Assembly (NCBI GenBank): GCA_000092065.1
Contig: CP000591.1
Direction: 5' to 3' (one strand)
From: Ostreococcus lucimarinus
Taxonomy: Eukaryota
DNA length: 64,000 bases
How positions within the stretch are numbered: the stretch's first letter is position 1; each line of letters opens with the position of its first letter. Both the position numbers and the translations under genes were made by a program. The notes under the pieces were generated by a model. It worked only from the letters and a program-made list of their open reading frames with translations, was not told the origin of the DNA and made no database searches. Of the stretch, positions 7,320 through 44,258 are shown piece after piece.

Positions 7320-10304
7320 ATGGACGACGTTGCGAATGATTCCGGGCACCGTCTCGGAACGCGCGACGGCGGCGACGACGACGACGACGACGCGGAAGAG
7401 GACGGCGCGCGGTTGACGAGCGAACCTTCGACGTCGGGCGCGTCGCTGAGATACGCCACCGCGCGCGACGTGCCGTTTCGAAAGCTGTGCGGCGCGTTCG
7501 AGGCGTTGCAGAACGAACGCGGTCGGTCCAAGGCGACGAGCGCGCGGCGGTATCGAGTGCTCGATACACTGCACGATCGATGTCTCGTGAGCGCGCGCGA
7601 TGGAACCCGCGTCGACGCGTTCGACGCGTATCGGTTGATACTGCCGGCGTTGGACAAGGAACGAGGGGCGTATTTCTTGAAACACGACGCGTTGGCCAAG
7701 GTGGTGGTGTCGGCGTTCGACATGTCTCGAGCGAGCGAGGACGCGAAAAAGTTGGAGGATTGGAAACGAAAGGGTGGCGGTAACTTTCCGCAAGTTGTTC
7801 GAGACGTTTTGGCGGGTGGACATCTCGCGGATCGTGAGAAAGATGAAGACGCGCGCACGTTGACCATCGGAGACGTGAACGAGGCGTTGGACGCATTGGC
7901 GGCGTGCGATAACAAGGATCAGCGCGCGTCGACGCTGCGGGCGCTGTTTTCAAAGATGGATGCGACGCAAGTGAAATGGACGTGCGCAATCATATTAAAG
8001 GAAACAAAAATTTCAATGGGAGAGAAGGCGATATTGCGTCATTATCACTCCGAAGCGAATGACTTGTGGGATTGGACTAGCGATTTGCGAAGAGTTTGTG
8101 AAGACTTACCGCGGCGAGACTTCCGGATGAAGCGCGAGGACATCGATGTGGGCGTAGGTTTAATTAATCCTCAGATGGCGAGAAGGCAAAACAGCATCGA
8201 TGCCGTGTACCGCGCGTTGAAAGGTACGCAGTTTGTCATCGAAACCAAATTCGACGGCGAGCGCATTCAAATTCACAAAGACGGCGACATCATCAACTAC
8301 TGGACGAGAAACATGAACGATTTTGGCCCTCGTGGCTACGATGTGATGAATGCTCTCTTTCGTCATTTGCCAAAGCGATGCATTCTCGACGGCGAACTCA
8401 TGGTTTGGAACAAGCTTCGCGATCAGTCGTACCCGTTCGGCGCGTTGAAGAATCTCATCAAGGCTGCAAATATGCGCAAGGCCAAGGATGAATTGTTTCC
8501 ACTCAAGGCACACCTCGAAAACCGTGATGGTGGTGATAGCGACGGTGAGGAGGATCTCATGAGCTCCAAGTATGCGTGGTACGCCGAGAACGTAAAGAAA
8601 CTCACGTATGGAGACTTGGAATTGGTCTACGTTCCGTTTGATATATTGTATGCCGTCGATCGAAGTGTGAAGACTCATAAGCTGAGAGAGCGGCATGAAC
8701 TTTTGAAAGAGCATGTGCGTGAAGTATCAGTCATGTGTGGGAATATTCGTGCTAGAATTCTTCTCGCGACGCCCGATTGCGCGTTCTCACGTGTAGGCTC
8801 AACGAAGGAGGATATCGAGCGCGCGCTGTTAGAAGCGATGGATAACGGAGAGGAGGGATTGGTAATCAAAGATCTCGACGGTCCATGGATACCAGGTGAT
8901 CGTAGCAATAACTGGATGAAAATCAAACCAGACTACTTATCGAGTGAAGATTTGGACGTCGTTCTCATCGGCGGCTATTACGGCGCCGGTGAGTTGCGCG
9001 GGGGCAAAATTTCGCAGTTCCTCTGTGGCATTGTGGAGGCAACGAACGATCCGATTAGCACCGCTTCAGATGGAGTCAAAATCATGAGCTTTTGCAAGGT
9101 AGGTACTGGTATCAGCGCCATGCAGCTCGACGATTTGAGAAGTCGGCTAGGCGACTTCATGCACAGAGAAAAGCCTCAAGACATGAACTACAACGTCACG
9201 GATGCTTACAACGAAAAGCCGGACGTTTGGATCTGGCCTCCTCAGCGATCATTGGTTGTGACGGTGAAAGGTGACATTCGTGCGATTCGCACGACAACTT
9301 TCGCAACTGGTTACAGCCTGCGTTTCCCCCGCGTCACCGGTATTCGATATGACAAAAAATGGTCCGACATCTTGACACTCTGCGATCTCTTAAAGACGAT
9401 TGAAGAGGAAGTACCGACATTGAAAGTGAATATCGACGATACACGAGGCGGTACGAATGCCCGAAAGCGTTCGCGCACGACGGGACCCGCGACGCTACTA
9501 CCTGCACATCTCATGCCGGTTGACGTTTCGGGCGTCGTGCAGGAATCTGAAATCTTCAAAAACATGCAAGTGCACATCGCGAACTGTGAAAGTCGAGAAC
9601 AAAAGCAGGAGCTGTTCAAAGCTGTCATCGCACGTAGTGGTACTACGAGTGAGTTGTGGCACAAGCATGTGACGCACAGCGTTGCGTTGAACCGCGACGG
9701 CTCAAAGTTCAGGACGGCGAGTCGGGAAGGCGATGTGTACACGATTGCCTGGCTCCAAGAGTGCATTCACGAAGGACGTGTGGTACCGCCGAAACCTCGA
9801 CATCGCTTACATCTCTCAGCGACGACGTGGTATGGTACGGATGCCATGGATCGATACGGAGATGATCATTTCTCGGACTGCAATTTGGCCGACGTACACG
9901 CGCTCGTGCATCAAGTTGGCGATCAAACTAAGCGTTGGAAAACTGCCGAAGTTCCAGCATTGGTGGAGCTCGATCGCGAGTATCCATCGGTGTGTGCTGA
10001 TGTGAAACTTTTGACGTTTAGGGGTTGTGTGTTCGAGATTGACGATTCTCTCGGCAAAGATGCGCGTGTTGATGAGCAGAGTAGTATGTTTCCAAGTGTG
10101 CTGGCGGGCGAACGTCGAAACGTCGAACAGATTCTTCGGATTTATGGTGGAAAGCTCGCACCTGAAGGCAGAATGGGGACACATATTGTGCGCATGTACG
10201 ATGACTCCGTTGTCTTTGAAGATATGGATGATGGAAGAAAGCAAGTTTCGCTCTCTTGGGTGAAACGTTGCATCGACCGGTCGACAACGGCTGATGTAGT
10301 CTAA
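7320..10304 (+). CDS. LIG4: DNA ligase IV (ATP-dependent, NHEJ) with C-terminal tandem BRCT domains
   Basis: Adenylation site ETKFDGERIQIHKDG (KxDG). Compare human LIG4 WLKIKPEY / LRFPRIEKIRDDKEW with WMKIKPDYLSS / LRFPRVTGIRYDKKW here. Two BRCT-like C-terminal modules (...YTIAWLQECIHEGRVVP... and ...VSLSWVKRCIDRS). The ORF begins at 6825, but its first 165 codons overlap the opposite-strand membrane-protein N-terminus, so start chosen at MDDVAND (ATG 7320, in frame). Confidence 0.9.
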   Translation: MDDVANDSGHRLGTRDGGDDDDDDAEEDGARLTSEPSTSGASLRYATARDVPFRKLCGAFEALQNERGRSKATSARRYRVLDTLHDRCLVSARDGTRVDAFDAYRLILPALDKERGAYFLKHDALAKVVVSAFDMSRASEDAKKLEDWKRKGGGNFPQVVRDVLAGGHLADREKDEDARTLTIGDVNEALDALAACDNKDQRASTLRALFSKMDATQVKWTCAIILKETKISMGEKAILRHYHSEANDLWDWTSDLRRVCEDLPRRDFRMKREDIDVGVGLINPQMARRQNSIDAVYRALKGTQFVIETKFDGERIQIHKDGDIINYWTRNMNDFGPRGYDVMNALFRHLPKRCILDGELMVWNKLRDQSYPFGALKNLIKAANMRKAKDELFPLKAHLENRDGGDSDGEEDLMSSKYAWYAENVKKLTYGDLELVYVPFDILYAVDRSVKTHKLRERHELLKEHVREVSVMCGNIRARILLATPDCAFSRVGSTKEDIERALLEAMDNGEEGLVIKDLDGPWIPGDRSNNWMKIKPDYLSSEDLDVVLIGGYYGAGELRGGKISQFLCGIVEATNDPISTASDGVKIMSFCKVGTGISAMQLDDLRSRLGDFMHREKPQDMNYNVTDAYNEKPDVWIWPPQRSLVVTVKGDIRAIRTTTFATGYSLRFPRVTGIRYDKKWSDILTLCDLLKTIEEEVPTLKVNIDDTRGGTNARKRSRTTGPATLLPAHLMPVDVSGVVQESEIFKNMQVHIANCESREQKQELFKAVIARSGTTSELWHKHVTHSVALNRDGSKFRTASREGDVYTIAWLQECIHEGRVVPPKPRHRLHLSATTWYGTDAMDRYGDDHFSDCNLADVHALVHQVGDQTKRWKTAEVPALVELDREYPSVCADVKLLTFRGCVFEIDDSLGKDARVDEQSSMFPSVLAGERRNVEQILRIYGGKLAPEGRMGTHIVRMYDDSVVFEDMDDGRKQVSLSWVKRCIDRSTTADVV

Positions 10305-18691: not shown

Positions 18692-18765
18692 GTTGGGTTG
18701 GTATAGTTGGTTATTACGTCCGCCTCACACGCGGAAGGTCAGGAGTTCGAACCTCCTACCCAATA
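18692..18765 (+). tRNA. trnV-CAC: tRNA-Val (anticodon CAC)
   Basis: Cloverleaf folds by hand. Acceptor GTTGGGT/ACCCAAT (G1:U72). D-arm GTAT-AGTTGGTTA-TTAC. Anticodon stem TCCGC/GCGGA with loop CTCACAC (U33, CAC at 18726-18728, A37). Variable loop AGGTC. T-arm AGGAG-TTCGAAC-CTCCT. Discriminator A. No encoded CCA, as expected for a nuclear gene. Very similar to human tRNA-Val-CAC. Confidence 0.85.
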
Positions 18766-18770
18766 CGCGC

Positions 18771-19742: not shown

Positions 19743-21545
19743 CTAACGCTTTTTGCTGAAATAATTCGTAATTTCGTTCTTACGCTTCACGCCGCCACCG
19801 GTGGACTTGTCTAACAAGCCCATGGACGCTCGAATCTCGCGCTGAATCGCCTCCGGGAGCTCGGCCAACACGTTTTTGTCGATTTGATCAGCCTTGATCG
19901 GACTCGCCGCGGGCGTCGCCGACACCGACGCCGGCGCCTTGGCTGCTTTCGTCGCGTTCTTAAACATCTCCACGACGTCGCCGCTGTCTTTTTCGAGCGA
20001 CACGAAATTTGACGCCGACACGGACATCCCGGTGATCGACCAACGCTCGCGACCACTGGCCCATTTCGAGAGCAACGTGAGCGCGTCTTGCGCCATTTCG
20101 TCCGCGCCAGGTCGCAAAGGACACCGTCGCGAGCAATGCCCACTGCTCGTCTCGCGCTCATCCGGGCTCGAAAGACCTAAAGTCAACAGCTTTGGCACGC
20201 GATTCCACTCTTCTTCGTCCGCCTCGCACCGATCGTTCAACTCGGCGGTGAGTTCGGCGAGCCAGTGCTTGGCGCTCGCGATGGAGCGAATCGCCAACGC
20301 CCCTCGAAACGTCTTCCCGGTGCCGATGCTTTTCGGCATCTCGCGCGCTTTGACAGGGTCATCATCTAAACCTAAAGACACTTTGCGCACCCACTGCGCT
20401 TTTTCTTCCCCACAAACTTCCTCGAGCTTGCGCAGCGGCGTCCTCGCGAGTTCGCCGATGGTTTTCACGTTTAAACCATCCGCGAGCTCGCGTCCAAACT
20501 TGGCACCTAAACCGCGAATGCGGTCGATGGGTAATTCATCTAAAAGCGTCGACGTGTGGTCGGGACAGAGTACCGTTTGCGACGCCGGCTTGTTCATCCC
20601 ACTCGTCAGCTTGGCGAGCATTTTGTTCAACGCGATGCCCGCGCTCAACGTGTACCCGAGCTCGTCCACGCACGCCTTGCGAAGATTGAAACAAATGTAC
20701 GCCCCCGCGGCGAGAAGTTTCTCTTCCTCTCGCCATTCGCTCTCGTCTCTATTCCACCACGCCACGGACGCCTCATCAGGAGGTCGCGGTCGAAAATTTC
20801 GCATCGGATCTTCTTCTTCCTTCGCCGCCGCCTCGACCGTCGCGTCCCCCGCCGCCGCCGCCTCGACCGACGCGTCCCCCGCCGCCGCGTTCTCGATGGT
20901 CTCCTCCACCGCGCCCGCGCCCAGCACCGGTCCATCCGCGCTGCCCGCCCGCAGCGCCTTCTTACTCACGTATCCTTTCCCGCTCACCGCGCTCGCGCCC
21001 GCCGCGTGACTCGTCCTCGCCTTTTCCAAAATCGTCGCCCACGCCGTCTCCTCCAAAACCTTCTTCGCGCTCTCCGTCAGATCCAAGTACGCCTCGTCGA
21101 TGCTCGCCCGCTCGATCGTCCCTCCGCGCGCCAGCACCGCCGCCACCTCGCGTCCCGCCTCCCTGTACAGCGTCAAATCCGCCTTCGACCGCCGCGTCGG
21201 CACCTGCACCACCGCGCACGCCGGCGCCAGCGCCCTCGCCTCGCGTCCTCGCATGTTCCGCTTCACCCCTCTCGCGCGCGCCTCGTACGACACCGCGATC
21301 AACGAGTGATTTTCGAACCCATCGCGAAGCTCTCGATCGTCGTCCGGCGCCAGCGCGCGCACGCCGCCGCGCTCGAACGGATTATACTGCACCACCACCA
21401 GCGGGACATCCTCCGCCGACGCGCGCCCGTCGCGGCGCCCCGCCGCGGTCTTCGCGCGCAGATCGCGGCGCTCGACCTGGCAGTAAAACGCGTCGAGGTC
21501 CAGGTGCGCGACGACGCGGTGCGTCGCGATCGCGCGCGTCGTCAT
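19743..21545 (-). CDS. POLH: DNA polymerase eta (Y-family translesion polymerase)
   Basis: N-terminus VAHLDLDAFYCQVE and SIDEAYLDLT (catalytic Asp/Glu motifs of the Y-family palm). HhH region GLGAKFGRELADGLNVKTIGELA. C-terminal UBZ-like/PIP-like tail ending KRKNEITNYFSKKR. Confidence 0.85.
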   Translation of the reverse strand: MTTRAIATHRVVAHLDLDAFYCQVERRDLRAKTAAGRRDGRASAEDVPLVVVQYNPFERGGVRALAPDDDRELRDGFENHSLIAVSYEARARGVKRNMRGREARALAPACAVVQVPTRRSKADLTLYREAGREVAAVLARGGTIERASIDEAYLDLTESAKKVLEETAWATILEKARTSHAAGASAVSGKGYVSKKALRAGSADGPVLGAGAVEETIENAAAGDASVEAAAAGDATVEAAAKEEEDPMRNFRPRPPDEASVAWWNRDESEWREEEKLLAAGAYICFNLRKACVDELGYTLSAGIALNKMLAKLTSGMNKPASQTVLCPDHTSTLLDELPIDRIRGLGAKFGRELADGLNVKTIGELARTPLRKLEEVCGEEKAQWVRKVSLGLDDDPVKAREMPKSIGTGKTFRGALAIRSIASAKHWLAELTAELNDRCEADEEEWNRVPKLLTLGLSSPDERETSSGHCSRRCPLRPGADEMAQDALTLLSKWASGRERWSITGMSVSASNFVSLEKDSGDVVEMFKNATKAAKAPASVSATPAASPIKADQIDKNVLAELPEAIQREIRASMGLLDKSTGGGVKRKNEITNYFSKKR

Positions 21546-27197: not shown

Positions 27198-28223
27198 TCA
27201 TTCCATCCCCGTCACTCCGCCTTCCGTGATCTGGAATTCAGCTTCGTCTTCTTTCAGAGTCGGACCTTGAAGCACTTTGAGCACGCGCGCCTCGGCTCTG
27301 CCCTTTCTTACCATCAGACGAATCGTAGACGCATGGGCCAAAACGTGCCCCCCGATCGCCTTCTTTGGTTCAACTCCCGCGAAAGCCATGCCCCCCGGGT
27401 CAGATTGGACTTGATTAGTGAGCACGACGGCGACGTTGAATTCTTCGGCAATTTTTCGCAAGCGAGAGAGGAACTGATTGAGTGTCTGCTGTCGTTCGCT
27501 CAACTCTCCTCTCGCGACGTAATCCACTCGAAAAATCGCCATGATGCTGTCGACGACGAGTAACTTGAAAGGTTCTTCAGCCATTTTCGCGCCAATAGCG
27601 ATGAGAGCATGCATCATTTGATCGACGGTATCCACGCGAGCGACCATGACGTTCGATAAAACGGCGTCAGCGTCCAGTCCAAAGCGGTTCGCGATTTGAA
27701 CGAGGCGGTCTCCGCGGAAGGTGTTTTCGGTATCGATCCACGCCACCTTGGCGCATCCACCGCCCATTTCCACCGGCATTTGCGTCGTAACGGCAATAGT
27801 GTGACATAGCTGGGTCTTGCCGCATCGCCACTCGCCGTAAATCTCCGTGATCGCTCGACTTTCAAATCCGCCGCCCAAGATCGCGTCCACCGCGGCGGCT
27901 CCAGATGTAATATGCACCACATCCTTGCGTCGCTCCGCATCCTCCGCCGCCGTGACAAATCCCCCAGCTTCGCTCTCCGGTAACAGTTTGACCGCACCTT
28001 CCAAAACCTTATCCGCTTTAGCGTCAGAGAAGCCTTTGACCGCGATGATCGCCTTTCGCGGAAACATCAACAACTGTCTCACCGTGACGAATCCCGCGTC
28101 TCTCAACTTTTTTATATCCGTCGCCGACACCCCGCTCTGCTGCAGCGCATCGATGGACACGATGTTCGACTGTTCCTCCGCAAACGTCACCCCGGCGTCT
28201 TCTTCCACGTCAACCCTACGCAA
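27198..28223 (-). CDS. DMC1: Meiotic recombinase DMC1 (RecA/RAD51 family)
   Basis: 341 aa. Walker A GEWRCGKTQLCHT. DMC1-type diagnostic stretches match DMC1 rather than RAD51: WIDTENTFRGDRL vs RAD51 IDTEGTFRPERL; DSIMAIFRVDY vs DSATALYRTDY. Also ERQQTLNQFLSRLRKIAEEFNVAVVLTNQV and the N-terminal HhH IDALQQSGVSATDIKKLRDAGF. Confidence 0.88.
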   Translation of the reverse strand: MRRVDVEEDAGVTFAEEQSNIVSIDALQQSGVSATDIKKLRDAGFVTVRQLLMFPRKAIIAVKGFSDAKADKVLEGAVKLLPESEAGGFVTAAEDAERRKDVVHITSGAAAVDAILGGGFESRAITEIYGEWRCGKTQLCHTIAVTTQMPVEMGGGCAKVAWIDTENTFRGDRLVQIANRFGLDADAVLSNVMVARVDTVDQMMHALIAIGAKMAEEPFKLLVVDSIMAIFRVDYVARGELSERQQTLNQFLSRLRKIAEEFNVAVVLTNQVQSDPGGMAFAGVEPKKAIGGHVLAHASTIRLMVRKGRAEARVLKVLQGPTLKEDEAEFQITEGGVTGME

Positions 28224-33552: not shown

Positions 33553-35757
33553 TCAAACGGTGTGCGCGATGCGTAAGGACTCGTGGTCCATGAAATCTGC
33601 CAAGCCAGGGATCGGGTTGGGGTGCCGGCGGATGGCTTCGCGTAGCTCCTCCGGCTCGACGACGAAGACGATGTTCTTGTACTCCTTCAAAGCCGCGCCC
33701 CTGACGCCTGAACCGGACTTGTGCGCCGTAGCGATGCCGAGCGTGAGTAAATTTTCAAAAGCTCGAACGAGGACAGAGCGCGAAGAGTCTTTGGCGTGCG
33801 TGAGCTGCTCTCGAGATCCCATCTCTCTGAACTCTTGCGCGAGCGCCTCGAATGTGAAGGAAGGACGCTTTCGCGCAACGTGCATTCTGTACATTGCGAC
33901 GCAGAGTAGCAGCTCCAAAGTCGTAGCGCCGATGAGTGAATCTACGAATGGATTCCTATATAGACTGTCCACGGCCTCGACGATATCATTGCTCGTTATC
34001 TTCCCGAGCTGACGGTTAACGCGCGAGAGAATCGCGCACGCCACTTTACTTACAGACGCCGGCGTGTTCTCCAAACGACCGTAGTGCTCGAGCTTTTCCT
34101 TCACCACAGGACTTTGCATCGCGGCGCGAAGATGCAAGTTCCACTGTTGCACATAGTCCGGATCGCTCGGGCACAAGTATTTGTCCTTGTCGGAAAGCTT
34201 GAGTGCCTTTGTCACGCCCTCCACCATGGACACCGTGTTCCCAGGCGGCGCGACGACGATGCGTCGATTGGAGAAACGAGATGCGACACGCTTTTCGAGC
34301 AGTCTATCGACACTGTGTCTGCACGTCACACCAACGACAGCGGCCTGCACGGTGGATTGCTGGAGTAAATCTGTGATGGCGTACAGAAGCGTTTGCTTCG
34401 AGCGCATCGCAAAGAGCTCAAAATCATCGAGGACGAAGATGACGCCGCGCTGTCCACCCAACAGCTTCAGCATCTCCGTCATGAAAGCAACGTTTTCCGC
34501 AAAACCAGTCTGGCGACCGGTGACATCCTCATTCATATTGGGGCACAACTGCGAGGCAATCTTCTGCATTGCGATGCGTTCGTCAGCGTGAAGCAAACCG
34601 CTAAGATGGACTGTCACAACCTTGCCCGGATGCTTGCTCTCCAAAATCTTCAACGCGGAGTCTAAGACGAGCGATTTCCCACTTCCTCGATTACCCACCA
34701 TGAGGACGGAGTTGTTTTGACCGCCAGACACCGTGTCTTCGAGGATGTTCAACAAGTGGTCTCGATGCGCCTTCAAGTTTGGCGCAAACTCCAAGCCGTC
34801 GGCGTCGATCGGGCGTTCACGATTGACGCCGAACAGGCGACGCCGCAAGAGTCGAATCGCCGCATCACCACCTCGCTCGCACGGTGGCTCGACTTCCTCT
34901 TTACGCGCTGCCAAGACTAAATCGAGCCCAGTCGGGGCGTCGCACAGCGCCGCCGAATCCAGTACTTGCGTGCCTCCGGCGTAATCATCCTCGTAACACT
35001 GCGTTCCACCATCGTCTTCGTCGAATTCCTCCGTCTCCGCCTCGGACTCGCTCTCGCAATCCGAGCCCAATCCCGCCACGACGTCGTCCACGCGACCGAA
35101 AATAGTCGGACTCGCCATCGAACCGCCAATGTTTGGCGAAAACGCCGCGCTCGCGCCGCCGCTCTTCCCCGGCGTCACCCTGAATTCCCGTTTTCTCCCG
35201 CTCGTCGACGGCGGCGACGTCCTTTTCACTCGATCCATCCTCGGCGTTCCATCACCCGCCGCGTCGTCGACATCGAAATCGATATTCTTCACCGGCAGCC
35301 CGCTCGAGCCCTTCTTCCTCGCGCGTTCGCCGTCCTCCGCCGCCGTCGCCGTCTCGCCCCCATCCTCCCCGAGCGACTCTCCCGCCGCCCCTTTCGCGCC
35401 ATTCATTATGTTTTCAACCTCTTTCAGCACCATCCCTCGCCGCTTCGCCGTCGTTCGACCGATCGTCGCCGCGACGGTTTCGCCGCCGCTCGCCGTCCCC
35501 GTCGTCGCCGTCCCCCCCATCCTCTCCCCGCGCTCGCCCGCGTCGCGCCCCGCCGCGGACGCCACGGGTGTCGTCGATCCTCGTCGACGCTTTCCCGCCG
35601 TCGTCGCCGCTCGCGGCGCGTCGTCGTCGTTTAAGACGTCGTCGTCGTCGAACGCGCGGTCGGCGTCGTCATCGTCGCGTCGCGCGCGCGCGCGCGCTCG
35701 ATCGCTGAACACGGTGCGCGCGACGGAACCGAACAAGCCCTGGATCGCGCTCTGCAT
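33553..35757 (-). CDS. ORC4: Origin recognition complex subunit 4 (AAA+), with ~300-aa disordered N-terminal extension
   Basis: Walker A VLMVGNRGSGKS. Compare human ORC4 [22 protein letters not shown] / [23 protein letters not shown].../ [27 protein letters not shown] with VHLSGLLHADERIAMQKIASQL / FVLDDFELFAMRSKQTLLYAITD / VVGVTCRHSVDRLLEKRVASRFSNRRI here. Confidence 0.85.
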   Translation of the reverse strand: MQSAIQGLFGSVARTVFSDRARARARRDDDDADRAFDDDDVLNDDDAPRAATTAGKRRRGSTTPVASAAGRDAGERGERMGGTATTGTASGGETVAATIGRTTAKRRGMVLKEVENIMNGAKGAAGESLGEDGGETATAAEDGERARKKGSSGLPVKNIDFDVDDAAGDGTPRMDRVKRTSPPSTSGRKREFRVTPGKSGGASAAFSPNIGGSMASPTIFGRVDDVVAGLGSDCESESEAETEEFDEDDGGTQCYEDDYAGGTQVLDSAALCDAPTGLDLVLAARKEEVEPPCERGGDAAIRLLRRRLFGVNRERPIDADGLEFAPNLKAHRDHLLNILEDTVSGGQNNSVLMVGNRGSGKSLVLDSALKILESKHPGKVVTVHLSGLLHADERIAMQKIASQLCPNMNEDVTGRQTGFAENVAFMTEMLKLLGGQRGVIFVLDDFELFAMRSKQTLLYAITDLLQQSTVQAAVVGVTCRHSVDRLLEKRVASRFSNRRIVVAPPGNTVSMVEGVTKALKLSDKDKYLCPSDPDYVQQWNLHLRAAMQSPVVKEKLEHYGRLENTPASVSKVACAILSRVNRQLGKITSNDIVEAVDSLYRNPFVDSLIGATTLELLLCVAMYRMHVARKRPSFTFEALAQEFREMGSREQLTHAKDSSRSVLVRAFENLLTLGIATAHKSGSGVRGAALKEYKNIVFVVEPEELREAIRRHPNPIPGLADFMDHESLRIAHTV

Positions 35758-36001: not shown

Positions 36002-37114
36002 TCAGTCGTCTTCGCGAGCGGCGGCGACGAGCTTTTCAATCTCTCTCGATACGAGCTCGAACGAGGTGAACGTGATCGCCGCGGCGGGAGTGGTGCGGAT
36101 GAGGTTGGTGGCGCATCCGCGATAGAAGGCGGCGACGCCGCCTTCGAGGTAAATTCGACGTACGAGGGCGCCGATGCCGCTAAACGGACCGAGACCGTGC
36201 ACGTGCATGTGCGAACGGATCACCTCGTGTGGGTACGTCAACGTCGACGCGATCATCTTTGCGATCGCGCTGGCGACCATGAGATCTATGGGCTCGATCT
36301 TATTCACCGCCACCTCGCGCTCTCTCGCGAGCTCAACTTTGATGGATTCGTAGAGCGGAAACTGAATGATGACGTGCGCGATGCCAATCAATGAAGGGCC
36401 AAAGCCGCTGTACAGCCCTTTCAAGCCCTCTTCGCGCATCATTCTCGTCAGAGCGTTTATCGTTGACGTGTACGGCACGCGCTTGGGCATCGCCGACGCC
36501 AACGCGTGCGAGTGCTGCACCTGCAAACGCGTCTTCGCCACCCACAACGGATTGGTCACGAAAATCGTCGCCGCGCCCGCCCCGGCGGCGGCTAAGATGT
36601 GCGCAAAATGATTTGCATCCGCAACTTTCACGACGCGTTCTCCATCGCTCGCGCCTTCACCGTCACGGACAATCGCCGTCTCGCCGACGCCTCGTCTACT
36701 AAAAATCCGCTTCAGCGCGCCGTACGTGCTAAAATACACCCCCCAATTCGGCAGCAGCGCCGCGACCGTCGGTCCCAGTCCCCTATACAGCCCTCTCGCG
36801 CCTTCGTGTCGCACGATTCGCCGCAACGCGCCGTACGTGCTCAGGTACTCTGTCGTCCCCGTGGTCGCCGCGCTCACCTGCAGCCTCGTCTTCAGGACGT
36901 CCAACGGGCACACCACAGTCGCCGCCACCGTCCCCGCGATCGCGCCGGAGAACCCATTCGCGAAGGCTTTATCGCTCAGCAGCGCGAGCGCGCTCGGGGG
37001 CGCGCCTCGCGCGAGGTTTCGATAAAAGTTTGTCGCGTGCTGCGGGTTCGCAAAGGCGTCGACGTCGGGCGACGACGTGGACGCGCGCGCGTTCGCGGCG
37101 TCGCGACGCGTCAT
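36002..37114 (-). CDS. Mitochondrial carrier family protein (SLC25; folate/NAD/pyrimidine-nucleotide carrier-like)
   Basis: Three carrier repeats with signature PLDVLKTRLQV, NPLWVAKTRLQ, P.EVIRSHM. Six TM helices. 370 aa. Confidence 0.85.
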   Translation of the reverse strand: MTRRDAANARASTSSPDVDAFANPQHATNFYRNLARGAPPSALALLSDKAFANGFSGAIAGTVAATVVCPLDVLKTRLQVSAATTGTTEYLSTYGALRRIVRHEGARGLYRGLGPTVAALLPNWGVYFSTYGALKRIFSRRGVGETAIVRDGEGASDGERVVKVADANHFAHILAAAGAGAATIFVTNPLWVAKTRLQVQHSHALASAMPKRVPYTSTINALTRMMREEGLKGLYSGFGPSLIGIAHVIIQFPLYESIKVELAREREVAVNKIEPIDLMVASAIAKMIASTLTYPHEVIRSHMHVHGLGPFSGIGALVRRIYLEGGVAAFYRGCATNLIRTTPAAAITFTSFELVSREIEKLVAAAREDD

Positions 37115-37286: not shown

Positions 37287-40200
37287 TCAACCGCGAGTCG
37301 TCGCTACGTTGCGGTTGGATTGCACCCAATCCACGGTGTCGCGCAAGATTTTGAAATCGTGCGCGTCGGCGATGTTGGAAAAGACGCGCAAGTCGTCGCC
37401 GAGCGCGCCGGGCTTGGCGGAGCACGCGTACAAACCGCCGCAGGCGCAGCGATTGGCGAGATGTCCCACCTTGATGCGGCCGTCGCGCGCGCATTTGAGG
37501 TCTTGAAGCTGATATTTTCGAACGCGCTCGTTCACCTCGGCGACGAGAGCGCCTTCGATCCATTGCATGTCGTACGGTTGACCGCACGGCGGGCCGTGAT
37601 CGTCGTCGCGCGCCGTGCACGCCCAGTGACCGGCGGCGAGGTCTGGGTCACGGCAGAGATCCAAGTCTCTGCAATCAGAGCAAGCGGAGCAAATAACGTC
37701 TCGGAGCGTAAAAGAGACGCATGGCTCGACGAACTCTGCCTCAGGGGAGAATTCGGCGACTTGAATCATCTTGAGCGCGTTTCGTCGGAGCAACGACACC
37801 GGACCCTCGACGCGAGCGTCGAGCGACAACACGGCAATCACCGTTCTCACAAACGCCAACGCTGGCGTGCCACGAAGCTTCTTGGACAGGTTTGCGCCAG
37901 GTGGCGAAGGGAATTGGTGCTCGGGCGGCGAGCGCGGACCGGCGAGTCCGAGGACTCGTTGGATATCCTGTGCGTAACGCAGCAATTTCGGCCCGAAGTG
38001 CGATTCGAGTTGTTGCTCCAACCAAATCACCTTGTCTTCTTCCAGGCGATCCAAGTCGCGCGCGTTGTGACCAAAGCCCGGGGTCGGTGGTGGTTTCTTC
38101 TCCACCGGAGCTCCGACGTCAGAATCCGAGTTCTCTTCGTCCGAATCGTCGCTGTCGCTCATAGCGCGGTACTTCACGGGCGTGCGCCCGTGCAATGGAC
38201 CGTCGCTTTCCTCCTTGTCGTGCTTCCAAGGCAACAATAAGAACTCGCCGATTATGGCGTGAAAGTGATCTTGAATCGCCTCGGGTAGGAATCGTGCGAT
38301 GTTCCAGTGCATGTCCAGCGCACCTTCACTATTGCGCGTGGCAAGAGGGTCGAGTTGCGAGTCATGCGGCGCGATGGAGTCGTGCCACTGGCTCTCGCCC
38401 GGAAGGTTGACGGCGGAAATCCCGGCGTAATCGAACGGTCCACGAAACAGAAGCGAGTGCCATTGCTTGACTCGATCGAGTTGCAGCCATGAGAAGAGTT
38501 CACGCTGGTGCAGGGCAGTCTTGAGACCTTCCACGCATGCGGAAGCACTCGCGAGATCGTGCTTGCCAGTCGCGATGATGATTCTTCGCATGTCCGCGTA
38601 CACGACTTCGACTTGAAGCTTGCGAAGTTCAGCCAACAGCAAGGTGAAGACTTTCTTCATGCAGAGCTCGACCAAGTTCTTCAACGCCGGATCGCGCAAC
38701 GCCGAAGACGGGCTAAAGAGCCAGCGATGAATCTGCGAAAGCAATTGATCCGCGTATGTATTGTGATGATCAGTTGCGTCGCGGAGCCAATTATCGACGA
38801 GCTTGTTCAGCGTCTTGAACGCGCCCGCAGCTTCGTGTCCGCCCATGCGCGTCGTGCCCTTGGTGCCAGTCTCGAAGCCCAACAGTGCGCCTTGCTCGAG
38901 ATCGTTCAAAATGCTAGACTTGGAAATGGCGCACACAGCCAAGTGATGCACTTGCAATTCCACACAAACGCTGCGATAAGCGCCGGGCGCGGTGACTTCC
39001 ATGCGCGACGCACCGTATGCATCGTCCAATCCGCTCAGAGACACGGCGCTCGCGCCGCCACCCAAATCAGGCTCGCCACCGGGGCCAGTCCACAACACCT
39101 GTTCGGCGTCGTGCAATGTGCGGGCGAAGAACGCGTCCGCGGTGTGCACCCACCAATCCGATTTCAAGTTGCCCACGGGGATGTGCGCATAACTCGCAAT
39201 CTCGACGTGCTCCTTCAACCACTCGGCGCTTTCGACGACGCGCGCCGAAGCAATTTTCGCGGCATCAAGTTGCCATCCCCGGGCTGCATCTGTGCTCAAG
39301 TCACTGTCCGAAAGATTTGGCGGCCTGAAAACGATGGGAAGACGTCCAGAGGCGGGCATCAAGGCGCTCAATCTCCCAGCCAAACCTTCTCGCACGGACG
39401 AAGTGTCTTGAGCCGGATCGACGCCGGCGCCTGGGGGAGCTTGAACGAGAAGCACCGTACCACCGCTAGATGCGGAAATGTAGGCGCCGATAGCGTGGTT
39501 CAAATGCTTGCCAACTTGTTCCATGTTTCTCGCGTACAACACGTTCCATTTCGAGGCGGCTTCTGCTCTCGCTTCGTCGTCAGTTTGCTCGTCTCCGCTC
39601 ATCGAGTGCATAAACGACGACCAAAGCTCGGGGGTGACCTCTCGAACACCTTTACCCGGTTGATGAACGATCACCGTGCCTTTGCTTTCGCGGCTGTTGT
39701 GCAGCACGTAAATTCCACGTCCTTTATCACCAGAAACTCCAGCAAAGTAGAACGTGATGTGGGACAATTTCGGCAAATACGAGCTGACTTCAGCCGTCGC
39801 CTTCATTTGAAACATGTTCATGCCATAGGACTCGTCGCCAATATCGAGCGCTCGCTTTTGTTCCGACTTTTTCACCGCCATGACGCAACCGATGTTGTAA
39901 ATGAATCTATCAATCAAAGGCACGTTCTTTTCGTATACGCCGATGACAGACGGGTCTGCCAAAAGCGCAGCAATTTCCAACCCACTCGCGAAATTTCGCT
40001 CTTGCACGTTAATTTCGTACAAGTGGGGCGCGATGAAACCGCGCGGAAGAGTTGCCGTGATTCGTCGCTTTCCTTCCAAGCCGAGATCGCCTTCGCGATC
40101 CGTTTCGCGCGTGGCGATGACGAGGCGACGGGGCACGTCCACCTTGATGACTTGCATCGTACCGTTCACTAGCACCCAGACGGCAAAAATTCCTGGGACT

Positions 40201-43200
40201 TGCGTTTGTTCCACCTGGATGATGTGCATCGTCGAGTGTGCGATCGTTTCCTCGCGTGATTCCACAAAGGATTCGAGACCGAATGCACCCGATCGTCTCT
40301 TTCTTCGCATGACGCCTCCCTCGCGTTCAATCTGAGCTCGCTCTTTTTCGTCCTCGACGCGTTCGCGCTTGATATTTGCGCGCAGAGTTTTCCATTTGGA
40401 TTTGTAATGCTTCAACCAGCCGTCGTAATCGGTCGCTCTGTCCGGTGCCGCCGCGCTAGCGCTGGCCGAACCTGGAGTCTTCGGCGCTTCTCCAGAAGGC
40501 GTCGCCCGTTGGTCCGGCGTTTGCGGTGCATCACCATCTCTTCGAAACGTTCTAACGCGCGGACGAGTTGGCGTCGACTTGGCGCCGCCGTCCTCGATGT
40601 CGAGAATATTCAAATCTTTACCCGCAAGCGGCGCACCATTCGCGAATTGCGTCTGAAACATCGTCTTCAAGTTGCGCTGAGAAAACTTGTCATTCTTTTC
40701 TCGAATGCGCTTGTGCAACCAATCGGGATGCTTCACGTCTGGGCATGGGTTTTCTACGCCCTGTAAAGCCGCAGGGATGCTGATGATTTTCTGAATGGCC
40801 CCAGCAAGACGCGTCTTGTAGTATTCCCAATCCACCATCTCGCGCATGTTTGGCATTTCGTCGTCGGCGCCTGGAAGCGCGTCCTTGGTCCACTCCTTCA
40901 AGTATGCGCGCGCCACGGCCGTTTCGGCGTTGAAAATACTCACTGGAATAGCCCGTGCCGACGTCGGAGCTCCGAGCGGTTTCTTCGAGATGATGTACTT
41001 ACACACAAGACCCTTGTCCTTAATCAAATCGGCGCCGAGGAATTGGGACAGACGATGCGCTGTGGTGAGAGACGTCGACTTGCGATCGCCGTAATCGATG
41101 GCGGGTTTGCTCATGACGCTCGATTCAGAAATGAACTCTAAGAGCTCTTCGTCGTCAAAGTTCCTGCCTTGCGTTTTGAGCATGTCAAACCAACGATTGC
41201 CGATGTTTCCGACAGCTTTGTACACCTCTTCCAGCGTCTCGCCCTTCAAAAAGTAGTCAAACACCTCCGCTTGGAAGACTTTGATCAACTTGAGCTCGCC
41301 TCGACGCTTGAGTTCGAATCCTTTCAATTCTTCCAACGAGCCGTCCTCGTTGAACACGGCGTATCGTTTTTTAATGAGCACGCCCTCTTCCTTAGAAGCT
41401 GGAAGAATCATCGCCTTATACGGACCGTCGACTTCAAACTCGATGCTCATTTCTGAGGAAACCTCGTACGAGGACTTGCCATCGACCACCTTCAACGTTT
41501 GGTACTGGTCGTTCGTATTCTGCAGCGCAGTCATACGATTGAGAACGACGCACGGGTACGAAATCTTGTATCCTTTGTTCTTATTTGGGAGCGTAAACGT
41601 GAATGTCTCCGGGAAAGCGCGGGGCAAGCAGCACCAAATACCATCCGTATCCAATTCAAGCGGCTTGCCGATGTCATCCACCAGTTGCTTCGCCATTTGA
41701 ATAATCTTTGCACCTGTGTTCGTGACGACCCCAGCCATCTCCATCGAATACCACCGCGCGCCTTTACGCATGACGTAGCCGTAAAAGGAGTTCAAAATAC
41801 ACTTGTGCGCCAGCTGAAGCGAATCATACAACACAACCATATTTGCCGCCTTTTGGATTTCGATGATGTTCCCGCTCTGTTTCGCTTCGTCCAAATTGTT
41901 CTTCCACTTCTTATTCTCCCCTTTGTACACGTAGCGACGATCACGAAACGCCTTCACGGTGTCGATGTAGAATGGGTTTTCTCGCATGCAGATACTCGCC
42001 TTTTTCGTCGCCGTCACCGGTTTCTCCATAACCTTTCTATAAACTTTTTGCGTATACAACTTCAGGCGCTGCTTCTTCTGCTCTTGTTGCTCTTCGTACG
42101 GAAGTTCAGCCCACGTTCGTTGTGGGCCACCGGGATGAGACGGCGCAAACTTATCAACTTGCAATTGCGCCTTGATGGCGGCATACTCGCTCGACGTCGA
42201 GGCAAAGTGCTCGCCGCGCCAAACCCATTCCATCTCACGCAGGCATCCCTTACCCGGTCGGTTGTAATCGCACGCGGCGCATACATCCTCATTGACGATA
42301 GCCGCCGGCTGCAAGCGGTTCGTCAAAATAATGTTCGGGTACATTGCTGCTACGTCCAAGTGATAAATCAGCGGTTCCATGTTCAAATTTGGGTTGTCGC
42401 GAAGGTACTCGAGCTTCTCGGCGATTTGCGCACGAATCTCATCGTAATCTGCGCAGTCATCCTTCCCCAGACCTTTTCCTTCGACCCGAAGGGCGTAGTC
42501 CAAATCGTCGTCGAGATTGTCAAGTAGTCTCTGATACCCTTCTGGATTCAACTTGAAGTCGCACGGGATGTCTGAACGGAACACGCCCGCCTCGAGACAC
42601 TCCACGTGACCGCCGATGTACGTTTCACTATTCAAGAGGTGACCTTCGTAGTATTTTTCACCGGCGCTGACTTGTTTGTTCGGGCAAACGATGTTTCCGT
42701 GGTACGCCTCAACCATGAGCAAAGCCTCGCACAGGGTACCGGAACCTTTGCGAAGGACTTCGTCCGGCGAGAGCGGAATAATCGTCGACAGCGCAAAGAT
42801 GAAAGGGTGCACGTACTTCATGTACAAGTAGTACGTACTCACGGCATCGGAAACGGAATACGACGCCATCATCTGAGGGTGACTTTGCGCGTACGGTAAC
42901 ATGTCTTCCGGGTCCACTTCGACCGGATCGTACTTTAACTTTGCCTTGGTCACCGCCTTCAAGCCGTGCGATCCGGCGGGGAGGTAGGAATCGCGCTTCA
43001 CCCACGCGAAGCAATCCAGGTGCAGCGCAGAATTACTTCGACATTCACCCGACTGTTCGCACTTGAAACCAATCTCACGGTACATATCCATCCCGTTCTT
43101 AGTCGCTCTAGTTTCGATGAATGGGAAATCGAAATAATCACCGTTGTACGTGACGTAAATGCTCGGTTGCGTCTCGCGCATATGATCAAACCACGTGCGG

Positions 43201-44258
43201 ATGAGCGCTTGCTCGTTCGGCACGTTCCAAACGATGAACGGGCCTTTGTACTCGGGCTTTGGCGTGTACTCGAAATCTTCTACGTCCTCGCTCACGATTT
43301 CACGGTTGATTATCAAATACCCTTGGCCGTCCAACATGTACGAAATCATAAACACCTGGTCGTGCTCGGCGTCTGGAAACTTTAACGGAAGCTTGGTGGT
43401 TTCGATATCGAACGCGCACACGCGAACTTCACCGCGATCTAACATTTGCTCTTGCAACGTCAGCGTCACCGCGCCGTGCTCGGCGCGCACGCTGTACCAT
43501 TTCCCGCATCGCACGTCGGTGTCGATCATGTATCTCATGTGATACGGCACGTCGTACTCGCGAATGTCAATCATCGCCTCTTCGTAATCCGTCAACGCCT
43601 TCTTCTTCGGCTTGATCCCCGCGTCCAGGCTTTCCTGGTGCGACAACGCTTCGTACGCCGCCGCCGCGGACGATTTCTTCTTATTCTTGGACACTATGGG
43701 CAAGATTTCTCTGCGCACGTCCATGAGCTCTTGCGTCGTCGCGAACGAAACCTTCAAATACGTCTGCTGCAATCCGCTCAGGTGATTCTTCAAATCCAAA
43801 TCCTCCTTATCCACCATCTCCACGTCCAGCACTTGTTCGCCGTATTTCCTCCTCAACAGCGCCTCCACCTCGTGCTCGCACCCAGTCTTCGTGGCGAGAT
43901 AGAAGTACGGCGCGTACTTGACCTGCGCCTTGAACGTCGACCCGTCCTGCGCCATAAAGTAACAATTCACCGCCGCGTACGCCTTCCCGCTCTCCTTATC
44001 CTCCACTTGCGTGCTGCTCGCATTTATCATCCACCCGATTCGATCCTCCCCGTCCACGTGCGTCCCGAATCCGAGCTCCTTCTGCAGCGCGTCCTCCTCC
44101 GCCGCGACTTGCGCCTTCGTTCGTCCATCCGCGCCCGCGCCGCCGCCGCCGCCGCGTCCACCGCCGCCGCCGCGCCATCGCGCGCCGCGCGCTTCTCCGT
44201 ACAGATTCGCCTTATTCCCCGTCGTTCCACTGAACGCGGGCTTTCGCGCGGGCGCCAT
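37287..44258 (-). CDS. POLE: DNA polymerase epsilon catalytic subunit A
   Basis: 2323-aa continuous ORF. Exonuclease motifs AFDIETTK (Exo I), YNGDYFDFPF (Exo II). Polymerase motif A LDVAAMYPNIILTN, motif C ELDTDGIWC. C-terminal zinc modules CSACSDC...C and C..C. N-terminal Gly-rich extension. Confidence 0.95.
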   Translation of the reverse strand: MAPARKPAFSGTTGNKANLYGEARGARWRGGGGGRGGGGGAGADGRTKAQVAAEEDALQKELGFGTHVDGEDRIGWMINASSTQVEDKESGKAYAAVNCYFMAQDGSTFKAQVKYAPYFYLATKTGCEHEVEALLRRKYGEQVLDVEMVDKEDLDLKNHLSGLQQTYLKVSFATTQELMDVRREILPIVSKNKKKSSAAAAYEALSHQESLDAGIKPKKKALTDYEEAMIDIREYDVPYHMRYMIDTDVRCGKWYSVRAEHGAVTLTLQEQMLDRGEVRVCAFDIETTKLPLKFPDAEHDQVFMISYMLDGQGYLIINREIVSEDVEDFEYTPKPEYKGPFIVWNVPNEQALIRTWFDHMRETQPSIYVTYNGDYFDFPFIETRATKNGMDMYREIGFKCEQSGECRSNSALHLDCFAWVKRDSYLPAGSHGLKAVTKAKLKYDPVEVDPEDMLPYAQSHPQMMASYSVSDAVSTYYLYMKYVHPFIFALSTIIPLSPDEVLRKGSGTLCEALLMVEAYHGNIVCPNKQVSAGEKYYEGHLLNSETYIGGHVECLEAGVFRSDIPCDFKLNPEGYQRLLDNLDDDLDYALRVEGKGLGKDDCADYDEIRAQIAEKLEYLRDNPNLNMEPLIYHLDVAAMYPNIILTNRLQPAAIVNEDVCAACDYNRPGKGCLREMEWVWRGEHFASTSSEYAAIKAQLQVDKFAPSHPGGPQRTWAELPYEEQQEQKKQRLKLYTQKVYRKVMEKPVTATKKASICMRENPFYIDTVKAFRDRRYVYKGENKKWKNNLDEAKQSGNIIEIQKAANMVVLYDSLQLAHKCILNSFYGYVMRKGARWYSMEMAGVVTNTGAKIIQMAKQLVDDIGKPLELDTDGIWCCLPRAFPETFTFTLPNKNKGYKISYPCVVLNRMTALQNTNDQYQTLKVVDGKSSYEVSSEMSIEFEVDGPYKAMILPASKEEGVLIKKRYAVFNEDGSLEELKGFELKRRGELKLIKVFQAEVFDYFLKGETLEEVYKAVGNIGNRWFDMLKTQGRNFDDEELLEFISESSVMSKPAIDYGDRKSTSLTTAHRLSQFLGADLIKDKGLVCKYIISKKPLGAPTSARAIPVSIFNAETAVARAYLKEWTKDALPGADDEMPNMREMVDWEYYKTRLAGAIQKIISIPAALQGVENPCPDVKHPDWLHKRIREKNDKFSQRNLKTMFQTQFANGAPLAGKDLNILDIEDGGAKSTPTRPRVRTFRRDGDAPQTPDQRATPSGEAPKTPGSASASAAAPDRATDYDGWLKHYKSKWKTLRANIKRERVEDEKERAQIEREGGVMRRKRRSGAFGLESFVESREETIAHSTMHIIQVEQTQVPGIFAVWVLVNGTMQVIKVDVPRRLVIATRETDREGDLGLEGKRRITATLPRGFIAPHLYEINVQERNFASGLEIAALLADPSVIGVYEKNVPLIDRFIYNIGCVMAVKKSEQKRALDIGDESYGMNMFQMKATAEVSSYLPKLSHITFYFAGVSGDKGRGIYVLHNSRESKGTVIVHQPGKGVREVTPELWSSFMHSMSGDEQTDDEARAEAASKWNVLYARNMEQVGKHLNHAIGAYISASSGGTVLLVQAPPGAGVDPAQDTSSVREGLAGRLSALMPASGRLPIVFRPPNLSDSDLSTDAARGWQLDAAKIASARVVESAEWLKEHVEIASYAHIPVGNLKSDWWVHTADAFFARTLHDAEQVLWTGPGGEPDLGGGASAVSLSGLDDAYGASRMEVTAPGAYRSVCVELQVHHLAVCAISKSSILNDLEQGALLGFETGTKGTTRMGGHEAAGAFKTLNKLVDNWLRDATDHHNTYADQLLSQIHRWLFSPSSALRDPALKNLVELCMKKVFTLLLAELRKLQVEVVYADMRRIIIATGKHDLASASACVEGLKTALHQRELFSWLQLDRVKQWHSLLFRGPFDYAGISAVNLPGESQWHDSIAPHDSQLDPLATRNSEGALDMHWNIARFLPEAIQDHFHAIIGEFLLLPWKHDKEESDGPLHGRTPVKYRAMSDSDDSDEENSDSDVGAPVEKKPPPTPGFGHNARDLDRLEEDKVIWLEQQLESHFGPKLLRYAQDIQRVLGLAGPRSPPEHQFPSPPGANLSKKLRGTPALAFVRTVIAVLSLDARVEGPVSLLRRNALKMIQVAEFSPEAEFVEPCVSFTLRDVICSACSDCRDLDLCRDPDLAAGHWACTARDDDHGPPCGQPYDMQWIEGALVAEVNERVRKYQLQDLKCARDGRIKVGHLANRCACGGLYACSAKPGALGDDLRVFSNIADAHDFKILRDTVDWVQSNRNVATTRG

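Follow-up and report, generated by a model that had tools for sequence, protein, structure and literature searches.

Six DNA-metabolism genes within about 55 kb of an Ostreococcus lucimarinus chromosome are most probably chance neighbours in an inherited colinear block

Do six genes of DNA replication, repair and meiosis lie close together on an Ostreococcus lucimarinus chromosome by chance, or do they form a functional neighbourhood? The window analysed here is a 64-kb stretch within a 593,542-bp chromosome record of O. lucimarinus CCE9901; its Dak, cyclase, u258 and MAT1 proteins are identical to O. lucimarinus RefSeq entries on that record. It carries LIG4, POLH, DMC1, ORC4, POLE and MAT1 within a span of about 55 kb. 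A sequence-only reading had pointed out these six genes; all are present, domain and homology searches agree with the gene names, and its assignment of the DNA to Mamiellophyceae is correct. The ends that it gave for the main part of the group, 7320 and 44258, are exact, corresponding to the ATG of LIG4 and the minus-strand ATG of POLE, respectively. The features are as follows.

7320..10304, plus strand: LIG4, DNA ligase IV (NHEJ ligase), 994 aa (Pfam domains, PDB chains, named homologues)
18692..18766, plus strand: tRNA-Val(CAC), at the edge of the DMC1/POLH-bearing segment, beside a cytochrome-b5-reductase-like gene (ARAGORN and Rfam)
19743..21545, minus strand: POLH, DNA polymerase eta (Y-family translesion polymerase), 600 aa (Pfam, PDB, UniRef name)
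27198..28223, minus strand: DMC1 meiotic recombinase, main exon (Pfam Rad51, 342 bits; TIGR02238; PDB DMC1)
33553..35757, minus strand: ORC4, origin recognition complex subunit 4, 734 aa (Pfam ORC4_C, E = 4.7e-25, and AAA_16)
36002..37114, minus strand: mitochondrial carrier (Pfam Mito_carr, three repeats; IMG name SLC25A32-type folate transporter)
37287..44258, minus strand: POLE, DNA polymerase epsilon catalytic subunit, 2,323 aa, single ORF (Pfam domains)
62016..62522, minus strand: MAT1 (CAK/TFIIH assembly factor), 168 aa (Pfam, TIGR00570, human MAT1, RefSeq match)

The LIG4 product contains the ligase N, M and C domains together with BRCT_2 and LIG3_BRCT (Pfam), the BRCT part lying C-terminal as expected for ligase IV. 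Among PDB chains it scores 273 bits with human LIG4, compared with 99 for LIG3 and 74 for LIG1, and the named proteins that it matches best are plant DNA ligase 4. The ATG at 7320 was preferred over starts at 7005 or 6825, because the extra upstream part is an Arg-rich CG repeat common to the antisense frame and thus a GC-rich antisense artefact. The POLH product contains the IMS, POLH-Rev1_HhH and IMS_C domains, scores 195 bits with Pol eta and 106 bits with Pol iota among PDB chains, and is named DNA polymerase eta in UniRef. A Pfam search detected no UBZ zinc finger (PF18439), which is C-terminal in Pol eta of some relatives, in the POLH of the window. The POLE domains (DNA_pol_B_exo1, DNA_pol_B, POL2_thumb, DUF1744, zf_DPOE_2 and zf-DPOE) all lie within one ORF, and members of the ORC4 cluster carry the name ORC4 in both UniRef and IMG.

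The main exon of DMC1, queried without its first exon, scores 431.6 bits with the TIGR02238 DMC1 model (cut-off 447.7) and 377 bits with the TIGR02239 RAD51 model (cut-off 478), placing the DMC1 model ahead by 55 bits. Among PDB chains, human DMC1 (343.6 bits) likewise exceeds RAD51 (325 bits). The shortfall below the TIGR02238 cut-off is probably explained by the first exon absent from the query. Analysis of the 5' end found no in-frame ATG ahead of the helix-hairpin-helix region, and the gene probably has a further short exon on its 5' side, located between the main exon and the stop codon of DCP1 near 28700.

MAT1, which the sequence-only reading had placed at 62 kb, lies there on the minus strand and encodes a protein identical to XP_001420492.1, likewise 168 aa long. 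It matches Pfam PF06391 with 75.6 bits (cut-off 25) and aligns with residues 72-137 of human MAT1 and residues 83-154 of yeast Tfb3. It comprises only the centre domain (ARCH-anchor helical) and the C-terminal region; the TIGR00570 match is restricted to model positions 74-143, with no N-terminal C3HC4 RING finger, and no Cys-rich frame was found upstream on the minus strand. Land-plant MAT1 homologues are also short. A plus-strand ORF at 61869-62672 was rejected as MAT1, being spurious and having neither a Pfam nor a PDB match.

All of these are standard orthologues that are already annotated in a genome published in 2007. The analysis also yields corrected models (full-length ORFs for ORC4 and Pol eta, the probable 5' exon of DMC1, and for MAT1 its strand and lack of a RING finger) and a dated account of the steps by which the neighbourhood came together.

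The gene map defines how the six genes are arranged. The window holds about 37 genes (1.7 kb per gene). No two of the six are adjacent; between one member and the next lie 1 to about 11 unrelated genes, and about 30 such genes are interspersed among them, as had been described. The pathways all differ: NHEJ, translesion synthesis, meiotic recombination, origin licensing, leading-strand synthesis and CAK/TFIIH. Shared short bidirectional promoters, as proposed from the sequence, do not occur among the six, because every divergent partner is an unrelated gene. Specifically, LIG4 pairs with an uncharacterised 1,600-aa gene, POLH with an aminotransferase gene (ATG at 21579, 33 bp from the POLH ATG), POLE with a putative GatC gene, and MAT1 with a zf-UBP gene at 62579, 56 bp from the MAT1 ATG. 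DMC1 lies in tandem behind DCP1, and ORC4 in tandem behind the mitochondrial carrier gene.

Selection could still act on the neighbourhood by means other than shared promoters, namely through a chromatin or replication-timing domain or through co-regulation in S phase or after DNA damage. Against such regulation stand the upstream sequences. The E2F-like motif TTTSSCGC occurs at −200 to 0 in none of the six genes, compared with 2 of 25 other genes in the window; for the MCB motif ACGCGT the counts are 2 of 6 and 9 of 25 (Fisher p = 0.72). Across the E2F-like and MCB tests, which compared the six with about 25 background promoters and relied on uncertain transcription start sites, no enrichment was found upstream of the six (Fisher p = 0.16-1.0), and the excess of these motifs that the sequence-only reading had thought worth seeking is absent relative to other window genes. 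ACGCGT is in any case uninformative here: almost all intergenic regions are simple repeats rich in CG, and the motif accordingly occurs 72 times in the 64 kb. Laxer E2F forms and an MSA-like motif are not enriched upstream of the six either, no de novo 6-8-mer sets them apart from random six-gene sets (permutation p = 0.42-0.92), and orthologous promoters likewise show no motif enrichment. Expected timing also differs among the six pathways, DMC1 being meiosis-specific and ORC4 acting in licensing. The O. tauri S-phase co-expression table (PMC2850359 Additional file 5) includes none of the six, although absence from a compilation of 2,038 strongly rhythmic probes is weak evidence. The part of PMC2850359 that cites Piganeau et al. 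describes bidirectional regulatory elements as few in Ostreococcus, which also speaks against a selected neighbourhood.

In favour of a selected neighbourhood is a nominal enrichment of about 6-fold, with 6 (5-6) DNA-metabolism genes observed and about 1 expected among the roughly 37 genes. The hypergeometric per-window P for at least six such genes is 3.5e-4 for a 200-gene category and 2.9e-3 for a 300-gene category, values that depend on category sizes that are estimates rather than annotation counts; no published KOG class L (replication/repair) gene count for O. lucimarinus was found in the literature searched. This nominal enrichment is real, at a per-window P of about 3e-4 for the 200-gene category, and we count it against chance. 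The enrichment is not compelling, because 0.07-0.6 such windows are expected per 13.2-Mb genome when windows do not overlap and more with sliding windows (overall 0.07-1.8, or roughly 0.07-2), before correction for a category picked after the genes had been seen. Translation-related genes are equally numerous in the window.

Within Ostreococcus, O. tauri and a second clade share the gene order of the window. In Bathycoccus, where synteny was traced into metagenome contigs by exact matches starting at the left end of locus L012, the order is POLE-carrier-ORC4-MnmA-Yae1-SUI1-2HADH-DCP1-DMC1-x-x-POLH-u258-..-Cytb5R-RPL4-..-LRR. Four of the six genes (POLE, ORC4, DMC1 and POLH) are thus colinear there, and the unrelated genes of the block are kept as well as the DNA genes. 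Two candidates for Bathycoccus ORC4, P0015 and P0094, were rejected as coming from other organisms (GC 0.67 and 0.64), and P0286, a candidate for Bathycoccus LIG4, was set aside as probably from another lineage, because the GC of its contig is 0.565. That four of the six have stayed together since the common ancestor of Ostreococcus and Bathycoccus is an observation that we count against chance and in favour of selection.

Micromonas-type genomes and two other high-GC lineages have the order POLE-carrier-(Ank-kinase)-ORC4-MnmA-tRNA-Val-Cytb5R-RPL4. The DMC1/POLH segment is absent from the MnmA/tRNA-Val site in these loci, and the same tRNA-Val lies beside the same Cytb5R gene in the Micromonas-type locus L009 and in L011. 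Among the six genes, only POLE and ORC4 remain linked in the Micromonas-type and other high-GC relatives. POLH and LIG4 are found elsewhere. A POLH 43% identical to that of the window sits among RPB1, Macro and PAN2 genes, with no Rad51-family gene within 10 kb, and LIG4 in three lineages has another, separately conserved context (amylase...LIG4-ABC1...DUF2064). The synteny that the sequence-only reading had proposed to examine therefore holds in part: four genes are colinear in Bathycoccus, and the set is split over at least three loci in Micromonas-type and other relatives. Because the interspersed genes are kept equally well and POLH and LIG4 occupy other loci elsewhere, the clustering is not conserved beyond background synteny. 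Together with the missing adjacency, shared promoters and motifs, this equal retention of unrelated genes argues against a functional co-regulated cluster.

POLE and ORC4 lie one to three genes apart in every Mamiellales-type lineage sampled. This linkage, too, is counted against chance and in favour of a selected neighbourhood. In the window the mitochondrial carrier is the sole gene separating them, and its position is kept in every relative examined; in Mamiellaceae-type loci an Ank-kinase gene is inserted between the carrier and ORC4, which weakens the case for selection. Weighing these points, we regard a DNA-metabolism neighbourhood under selection as improbable. In its more specific form, in which the Pol epsilon-carrier-ORC4 linkage, with DMC1 and Pol eta added in Ostreococcus and Bathycoccus, is selected as a DNA-synthesis neighbourhood via a chromatin or replication-timing domain, the proposal is very doubtful; if true, it would be a rare case of functional clustering of replication genes in a eukaryote.

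The functional unit could also be smaller, with POLE, the SLC25A32-like carrier and ORC4 forming a conserved S-phase module and the other genes being bystanders. The same-strand order POLE-carrier-ORC4 in Ostreococcus, Bathycoccus, Micromonas-type genomes and two or three further lineages fits such a module. Folate one-carbon metabolism supplies dTMP synthesis, and IMG names the carrier a folate transporter. However, this name is only an automatic KO assignment, MnmA, Cytb5R and RPL4 are kept in the same block as faithfully, and the interval between carrier and ORC4 can accommodate a kinase gene. The three genes have no common upstream motif, and no POLE occurs within 10 kb of a more distant, 35% identical ORC4. 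We therefore consider such a module very improbable.

The presence of DMC1, and a patchy GC content ranging from 0.51 to 0.71, could suggest a sex-related or recombination-suppressed domain in which meiosis and repair genes accumulate, comparable to the big outlier chromosome with its mating-type locus. Mean window GC is 0.608, however, equal to the genome mean (60% for O. lucimarinus; PMC3491373 Table 1), and the low-GC patches correspond to long genes, since GC3 falls with CDS length in the window (rho = -0.61). Introns are rare across the window, and gene order in the block follows that of Bathycoccus, a colinearity not seen in outlier regions (PMC3491373). GC, intron content and colinearity led us to reject this reading, which we hold to be barely credible.

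The most probable explanation, in which we have considerable confidence, is that the six genes are chance neighbours in an inherited colinear block on an ordinary, non-outlier chromosome and act independently. Chance in a dense genome, which the sequence-only reading had held in reserve, is thus the favoured account, with about 1.7 kb per gene and an inherited gene order. The co-location would have been assembled piecemeal through genome rearrangement and then inherited within a large colinear block. Specifically, the linkage of POLE, the carrier and ORC4 predates the divergence of the Mamiellales-type relatives examined. The Yae1-SUI1-2HADH-DCP1-DMC1-...-POLH segment between MnmA and tRNA-Val/Cytb5R is present in Ostreococcus and Bathycoccus only, and the position of LIG4 beside the block in Ostreococcus only, as judged against three other lineages. 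Each of the six genes has its own promoter region. Given the gene density and the general colinearity, the layout probably requires no shared regulation. The significance of the co-location is accordingly slight, its proximity being explained by gene density and inherited gene order; a functional cluster would have pointed to replication and repair genes being regulated together at the level of a domain, in a eukaryote that is among the smallest free-living ones.

Three kinds of known system can be compared with the window. Yeast GAL and DAL are true functional gene clusters. A nitrogen-assimilation gene cluster on Ostreococcus chromosome 10 is mentioned in PMC2850359. The window resembles these clusters in the close physical spacing of functionally related genes within a compact genome. 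Their genes, however, are adjacent and serve one pathway under one signal, whereas in the window 1 to about 11 unrelated genes intervene, six pathways are represented, and neither a shared motif nor co-expression evidence links the genes. In the big outlier chromosome region BOC1 (PMC3491373), too, genes of broad function are kept together in a way specific to Mamiellales, but BOC1 is low in GC, rich in introns and not colinear, while the window matches the genome average in GC, contains very few introns and is colinear with Bathycoccus.

The closest likeness is to the ordinary colinear blocks of Mamiellales (PMC3491373, PMC11106453). Genome organisation is globally conserved between Ostreococcus and Bathycoccus (Moreau et al. 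2012, PMC3491373), and 75.7% of genes are collinear among Mamiellales genomes (Mantoniella tinhauana genome paper 2024, PMC11106453). Similarly, order and orientation, unrelated genes included, are shared among Ostreococcus clades and Bathycoccus, and part of the block is found in Micromonas-type genomes, in agreement with both that level of collinearity and the stronger Ostreococcus-Bathycoccus conservation. The window's block does not differ from these in kind; it has an above-average number of DNA-metabolism genes.

The window averages 60.8% GC with a coding share of ~84%. Exact RefSeq matches on a 593,542-bp record of O. lucimarinus CCE9901 were found for Dak (XP_001420308), the cyclase-domain protein (XP_001420310), a conserved 258-aa protein (u258, XP_001420313) and MAT1 (XP_001420492). 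The O. lucimarinus genome has 13.2 Mb, 60% GC, 21 chromosomes and ~7,800 genes (PMC3491373 Table 1), and a 64-kb window should therefore hold ~37 genes. The gene map, based on Pfam, NCBIfam and PDB sequence searches, confirms that LIG4, POLH, DMC1, ORC4, POLE and MAT1 lie together in the window.

Gene map of the window, in order (coordinates, strand, feature)
396-2138 (+) Dak
2168 to ~7006 (-) large protein without known function, 1,600 aa
7320-10304 (+) LIG4
10351-11688 (+) cyclase-domain protein
11709-14177 (-) nucleotide-sugar transferase
14604-15338 (+) LRR protein
Between LRR gene and RPL4: repeat-rich gap, ~1 kb
16314-17396 (+) organellar RPL4
17460-18497 (-) cytochrome-b5-reductase-like (Cytb5R)
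18692-18766 (+) tRNA-Val(CAC)
18919-19695 (+) u258, without known function
19743-21545 (-) POLH
21579-22904 (+) aminotransferase
23259-27038 (+) beta-helix protein, 1,259 aa
27198-28223 (-) DMC1
Between DMC1 and MnmA, in order: DCP1, 2-hydroxyacid dehydrogenase (2HADH), SUI1/eIF1, Yae1-like
32017-33390 (-) MnmA
33553-35757 (-) ORC4
36002-37114 (-) mitochondrial carrier
37287-44258 (-) POLE
44564-45106 (+) putative GatC (weak Pfam match, E = 0.0013)
Then, in order: MFS transporter, HAD hydrolase, 48-51.4 kb stretch
51440-56164 (+) DEAH helicase with RWD and UBA domains
Between helicase and GatB: chalcone-isomerase-like
57537-59150 (-) GatB
Between GatB and MAT1: coiled-coil protein with glucan-water-dikinase N-terminal motif
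62016-62522 (-) MAT1
62579-63127 (+) zf-UBP protein
63228-63995 (-) last gene, without known function

The region 48000-51440 has a GC of 0.64-0.71 and ORFs overlapping on both strands, none with a Pfam match. Longer coding sequences have lower GC3 (31 CDS of the window; Spearman rho = -0.61, p = 2.6e-4), and the GC dips of 0.51-0.56 coincide with LIG4, POLE, the 1,600-aa protein, the beta-helix protein and the helicase; the low-GC patches are long genes, not distinct compositional domains. Intergenic regions are mostly ~30-300 bp, apart from the unusually long CG-rich non-coding gap (~1 kb) between the LRR gene and RPL4, in which a 122-bp tandem repeat sits at 15964-16289 (2.2-2.7 copies, ≤99% identity). 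A 36-bp in-frame tandem repeat at 24996-25348 (9.8 copies, 95% identity) encodes a 12-residue repeat within the beta-helix protein. The carrier is labelled an SLC25A32 folate transporter by IMG, an automatic label.

Domain models and PDB comparisons bear out all six identifications. LIG4 contains BRCT domains and matches human LIG4 with 273 bits (LIG3, 99; LIG1, 74). Its proposed start at 7320 is exactly an ATG; the part of the ORF 5' of it, Arg-rich CG-repeat sequence, was rejected as coding. POLH scores 195 bits against Pol eta and 106 against Pol iota. The RecA-family gene is assigned to DMC1, not RAD51, by its higher scores with equivalog models (431.6 vs 377 bits, the DMC1 score being below the trusted cut-off of 447.7) and human proteins (343.6 vs 325 bits). 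In this gene and in that of a second Ostreococcus clade, the main exon lacks an in-frame ATG 5' of the helix-hairpin-helix region, and in Bathycoccus the gene model covers more DNA than its protein requires; thus, DMC1 likely has an additional short 5' exon. ORC4 and POLE carry complete diagnostic domain sets. The presence of MAT1 at ~62 kb holds, with its gene model corrected to a 168-aa minus-strand ORF, whose MAT1 centre domain (75.6 bits) aligns with human MAT1 residues 72-137 and in which no RING finger was found; the plus-strand ORF 61869-62672 is without any match and was rejected as MAT1. The O. lucimarinus RefSeq models of ORC4 (122-aa partial protein, XP_001420485.1) and Pol eta (534 aa, aligning to just 57% of the 600-aa ORF) appear fragmentary by comparison with full single-exon ORFs, which are backed by metagenome-derived proteins and O. 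tauri.

The gene map alone rules out the shared bidirectional promoters suggested by the sequence-only reading, as none of the six genes is adjacent to another. All four divergent partners are unrelated (LIG4/large unknown protein, POLH/aminotransferase, POLE/putative GatC, MAT1/zf-UBP), while DMC1 and ORC4 lie in tandem behind DCP1 and the carrier, respectively. The POLH and aminotransferase ATGs (21545/21579) are separated by 33 bp, and by only 2 bp in the second Ostreococcus clade; the distance between the MAT1 and zf-UBP ATGs (62522/62579) is 56 bp. In such tight pairs, promoters or 5' UTRs must overlap the neighbour's coding sequence.

The proposed MCB (ACGCGT) and E2F-like (TTTSSCGC) motifs are not enriched in the 200 bp upstream of the six genes, compared with 25 other genes. 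The window contains 28 copies of TTTSSCGC, nearly all within coding sequence, and the motif lies upstream of 0/6 targets vs 2/25 others. ACGCGT occurs 72 times, and upstream of 2/6 targets vs 9/25 others (Fisher p = 0.72); it is common because nearly all intergenic regions are CG-rich simple repeats. De novo k-mers that best set the six promoters apart from the others perform no better than for randomly drawn sets of six (permutation p = 0.42 for 6-mers, 0.92 for 7-mers and 0.54 for 8-mers). Among orthologous target promoters in relatives, 1/13 has a strict E2F-like site (LIG4, in a very GC-rich lineage where a control promoter also carries one). The O. tauri S-phase co-expression table lists ORC5, Pol alpha/delta/zeta subunits, PCNA, MCMs, primase and RPA, and none of the six genes (PMC2850359); as this table is limited to 2,038 strongly rhythmic probes, their absence is weak negative evidence.

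Nominally, DNA genes are enriched ~6-fold. For a category of ~200 replication, repair and recombination genes, our own estimate from pathway inventories as no published count was found, the probability of at least six among 37 genes is 3.5e-4, with 0.07 non-overlapping windows expected per genome; for 300 genes, the values are 2.9e-3 and 0.6. Sliding windows raise the expected counts ~threefold. The broader category is favoured because MAT1 is equally a transcription/cell-cycle factor, and the category was defined post hoc, after the genes were seen. Translation-related genes are as numerous in the window (RPL4, eIF1/SUI1, MnmA, GatB, putative GatC, DHX29-like helicase, Yae1, tRNA-Val), which shows how readily a post hoc cluster arises; GatB and putative GatC are subunits of one organellar amidotransferase. 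With these estimated category sizes, the co-location does not appear to be beyond chance once many windows and many possible categories are allowed for.

Relatives share the synteny of part of the set. O. tauri keeps the order MFS-GatC?-POLE-carrier-ORC4-MnmA, and in a contig of another Ostreococcus clade colinearity extends from SUI1 via DMC1, POLH and RPL4 to the transferase and the cyclase gene. The Bathycoccus prasinos order (OZ116997.1 and metagenome contigs joined by exact-match walk), POLE-carrier-ORC4-MnmA-Yae1-SUI1-2HADH-DCP1-DMC1-two genes-POLH-u258-Ank-Cytb5R-RPL4-...-LRR, matches the window in order and orientation. Thus, four of the six have stayed linked since the common ancestor of Ostreococcus and Bathycoccus, but all the unrelated genes between them have done so too. 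This colinearity, together with genome-average GC and the rarity of introns, leads us to reject an outlier-chromosome or mating-type region as the source of the window.

In Micromonas-type contigs (64.5% GC, with M. pusilla XP_003061717 in their ORC4 cluster) and in two further high-GC lineages, the order is POLE-carrier-Ank-kinase-ORC4-MnmA-tRNA-Val-Cytb5R-RPL4-LRR, and the entire Yae1-to-u258 segment with DMC1 and POLH is absent from that position. In the window, tRNA-Val(CAC) adjoins the Cytb5R-like gene exactly at one edge of this segment; this tRNA is flanked by MnmA and Cytb5R, the segment absent, in contigs L009 (Micromonas-type, 11996-12069) and L011 (other high-GC lineage, 13721-13794), and by its position is taken to mark a rearrangement junction. 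In Bathycoccus and the second Ostreococcus clade, no such tRNA was found at the junction. The metagenome contigs L009 and L008 encode an identical 894-aa Micromonas-type ORC4 and differ downstream of MnmA (a U-box/LRR gene in one, Cytb5R-RPL4 in the other), a difference due to structural polymorphism or to chimeric assembly. In every lineage sampled, the carrier sits between POLE and ORC4; that domain-level co-regulation holds these three genes, or a larger set, together is improbable.

Elsewhere, POLH and LIG4 occupy other loci. The neighbours of a POLH with 43% identity to that of the window are RPB1, Macro-domain and PAN2 genes, and no RecA-family gene is close by; no POLE lies less than 10 kb from an ORC4 with 35% identity. 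In three other lineages (L043-L045; GC 0.565, 0.66, 0.72), LIG4 follows a glycosyltransferase/chitinase, alpha-amylase and two small genes and precedes an ABC1/UbiB kinase and DUF2064, and no other gene of the window is nearby; the amylase-LIG4-ABC1/UbiB-DUF2064 context is probably its older home in this group. The synteny comparison indicates that the neighbourhood was put together in steps.

Map, motifs and synteny do not support a functional cluster and favour the alternative already allowed for, chance. As the best explanation, the genes very probably came together by chance in a very gene-dense genome, the neighbourhood then being inherited within a larger colinear block. In Mamiellales genomes, 75.7% of genes are collinear (PMC11106453), and genome organisation in Ostreococcus resembles that in Bathycoccus more than either resembles Micromonas (PMC3491373); the persistence of this neighbourhood matches that general colinearity.
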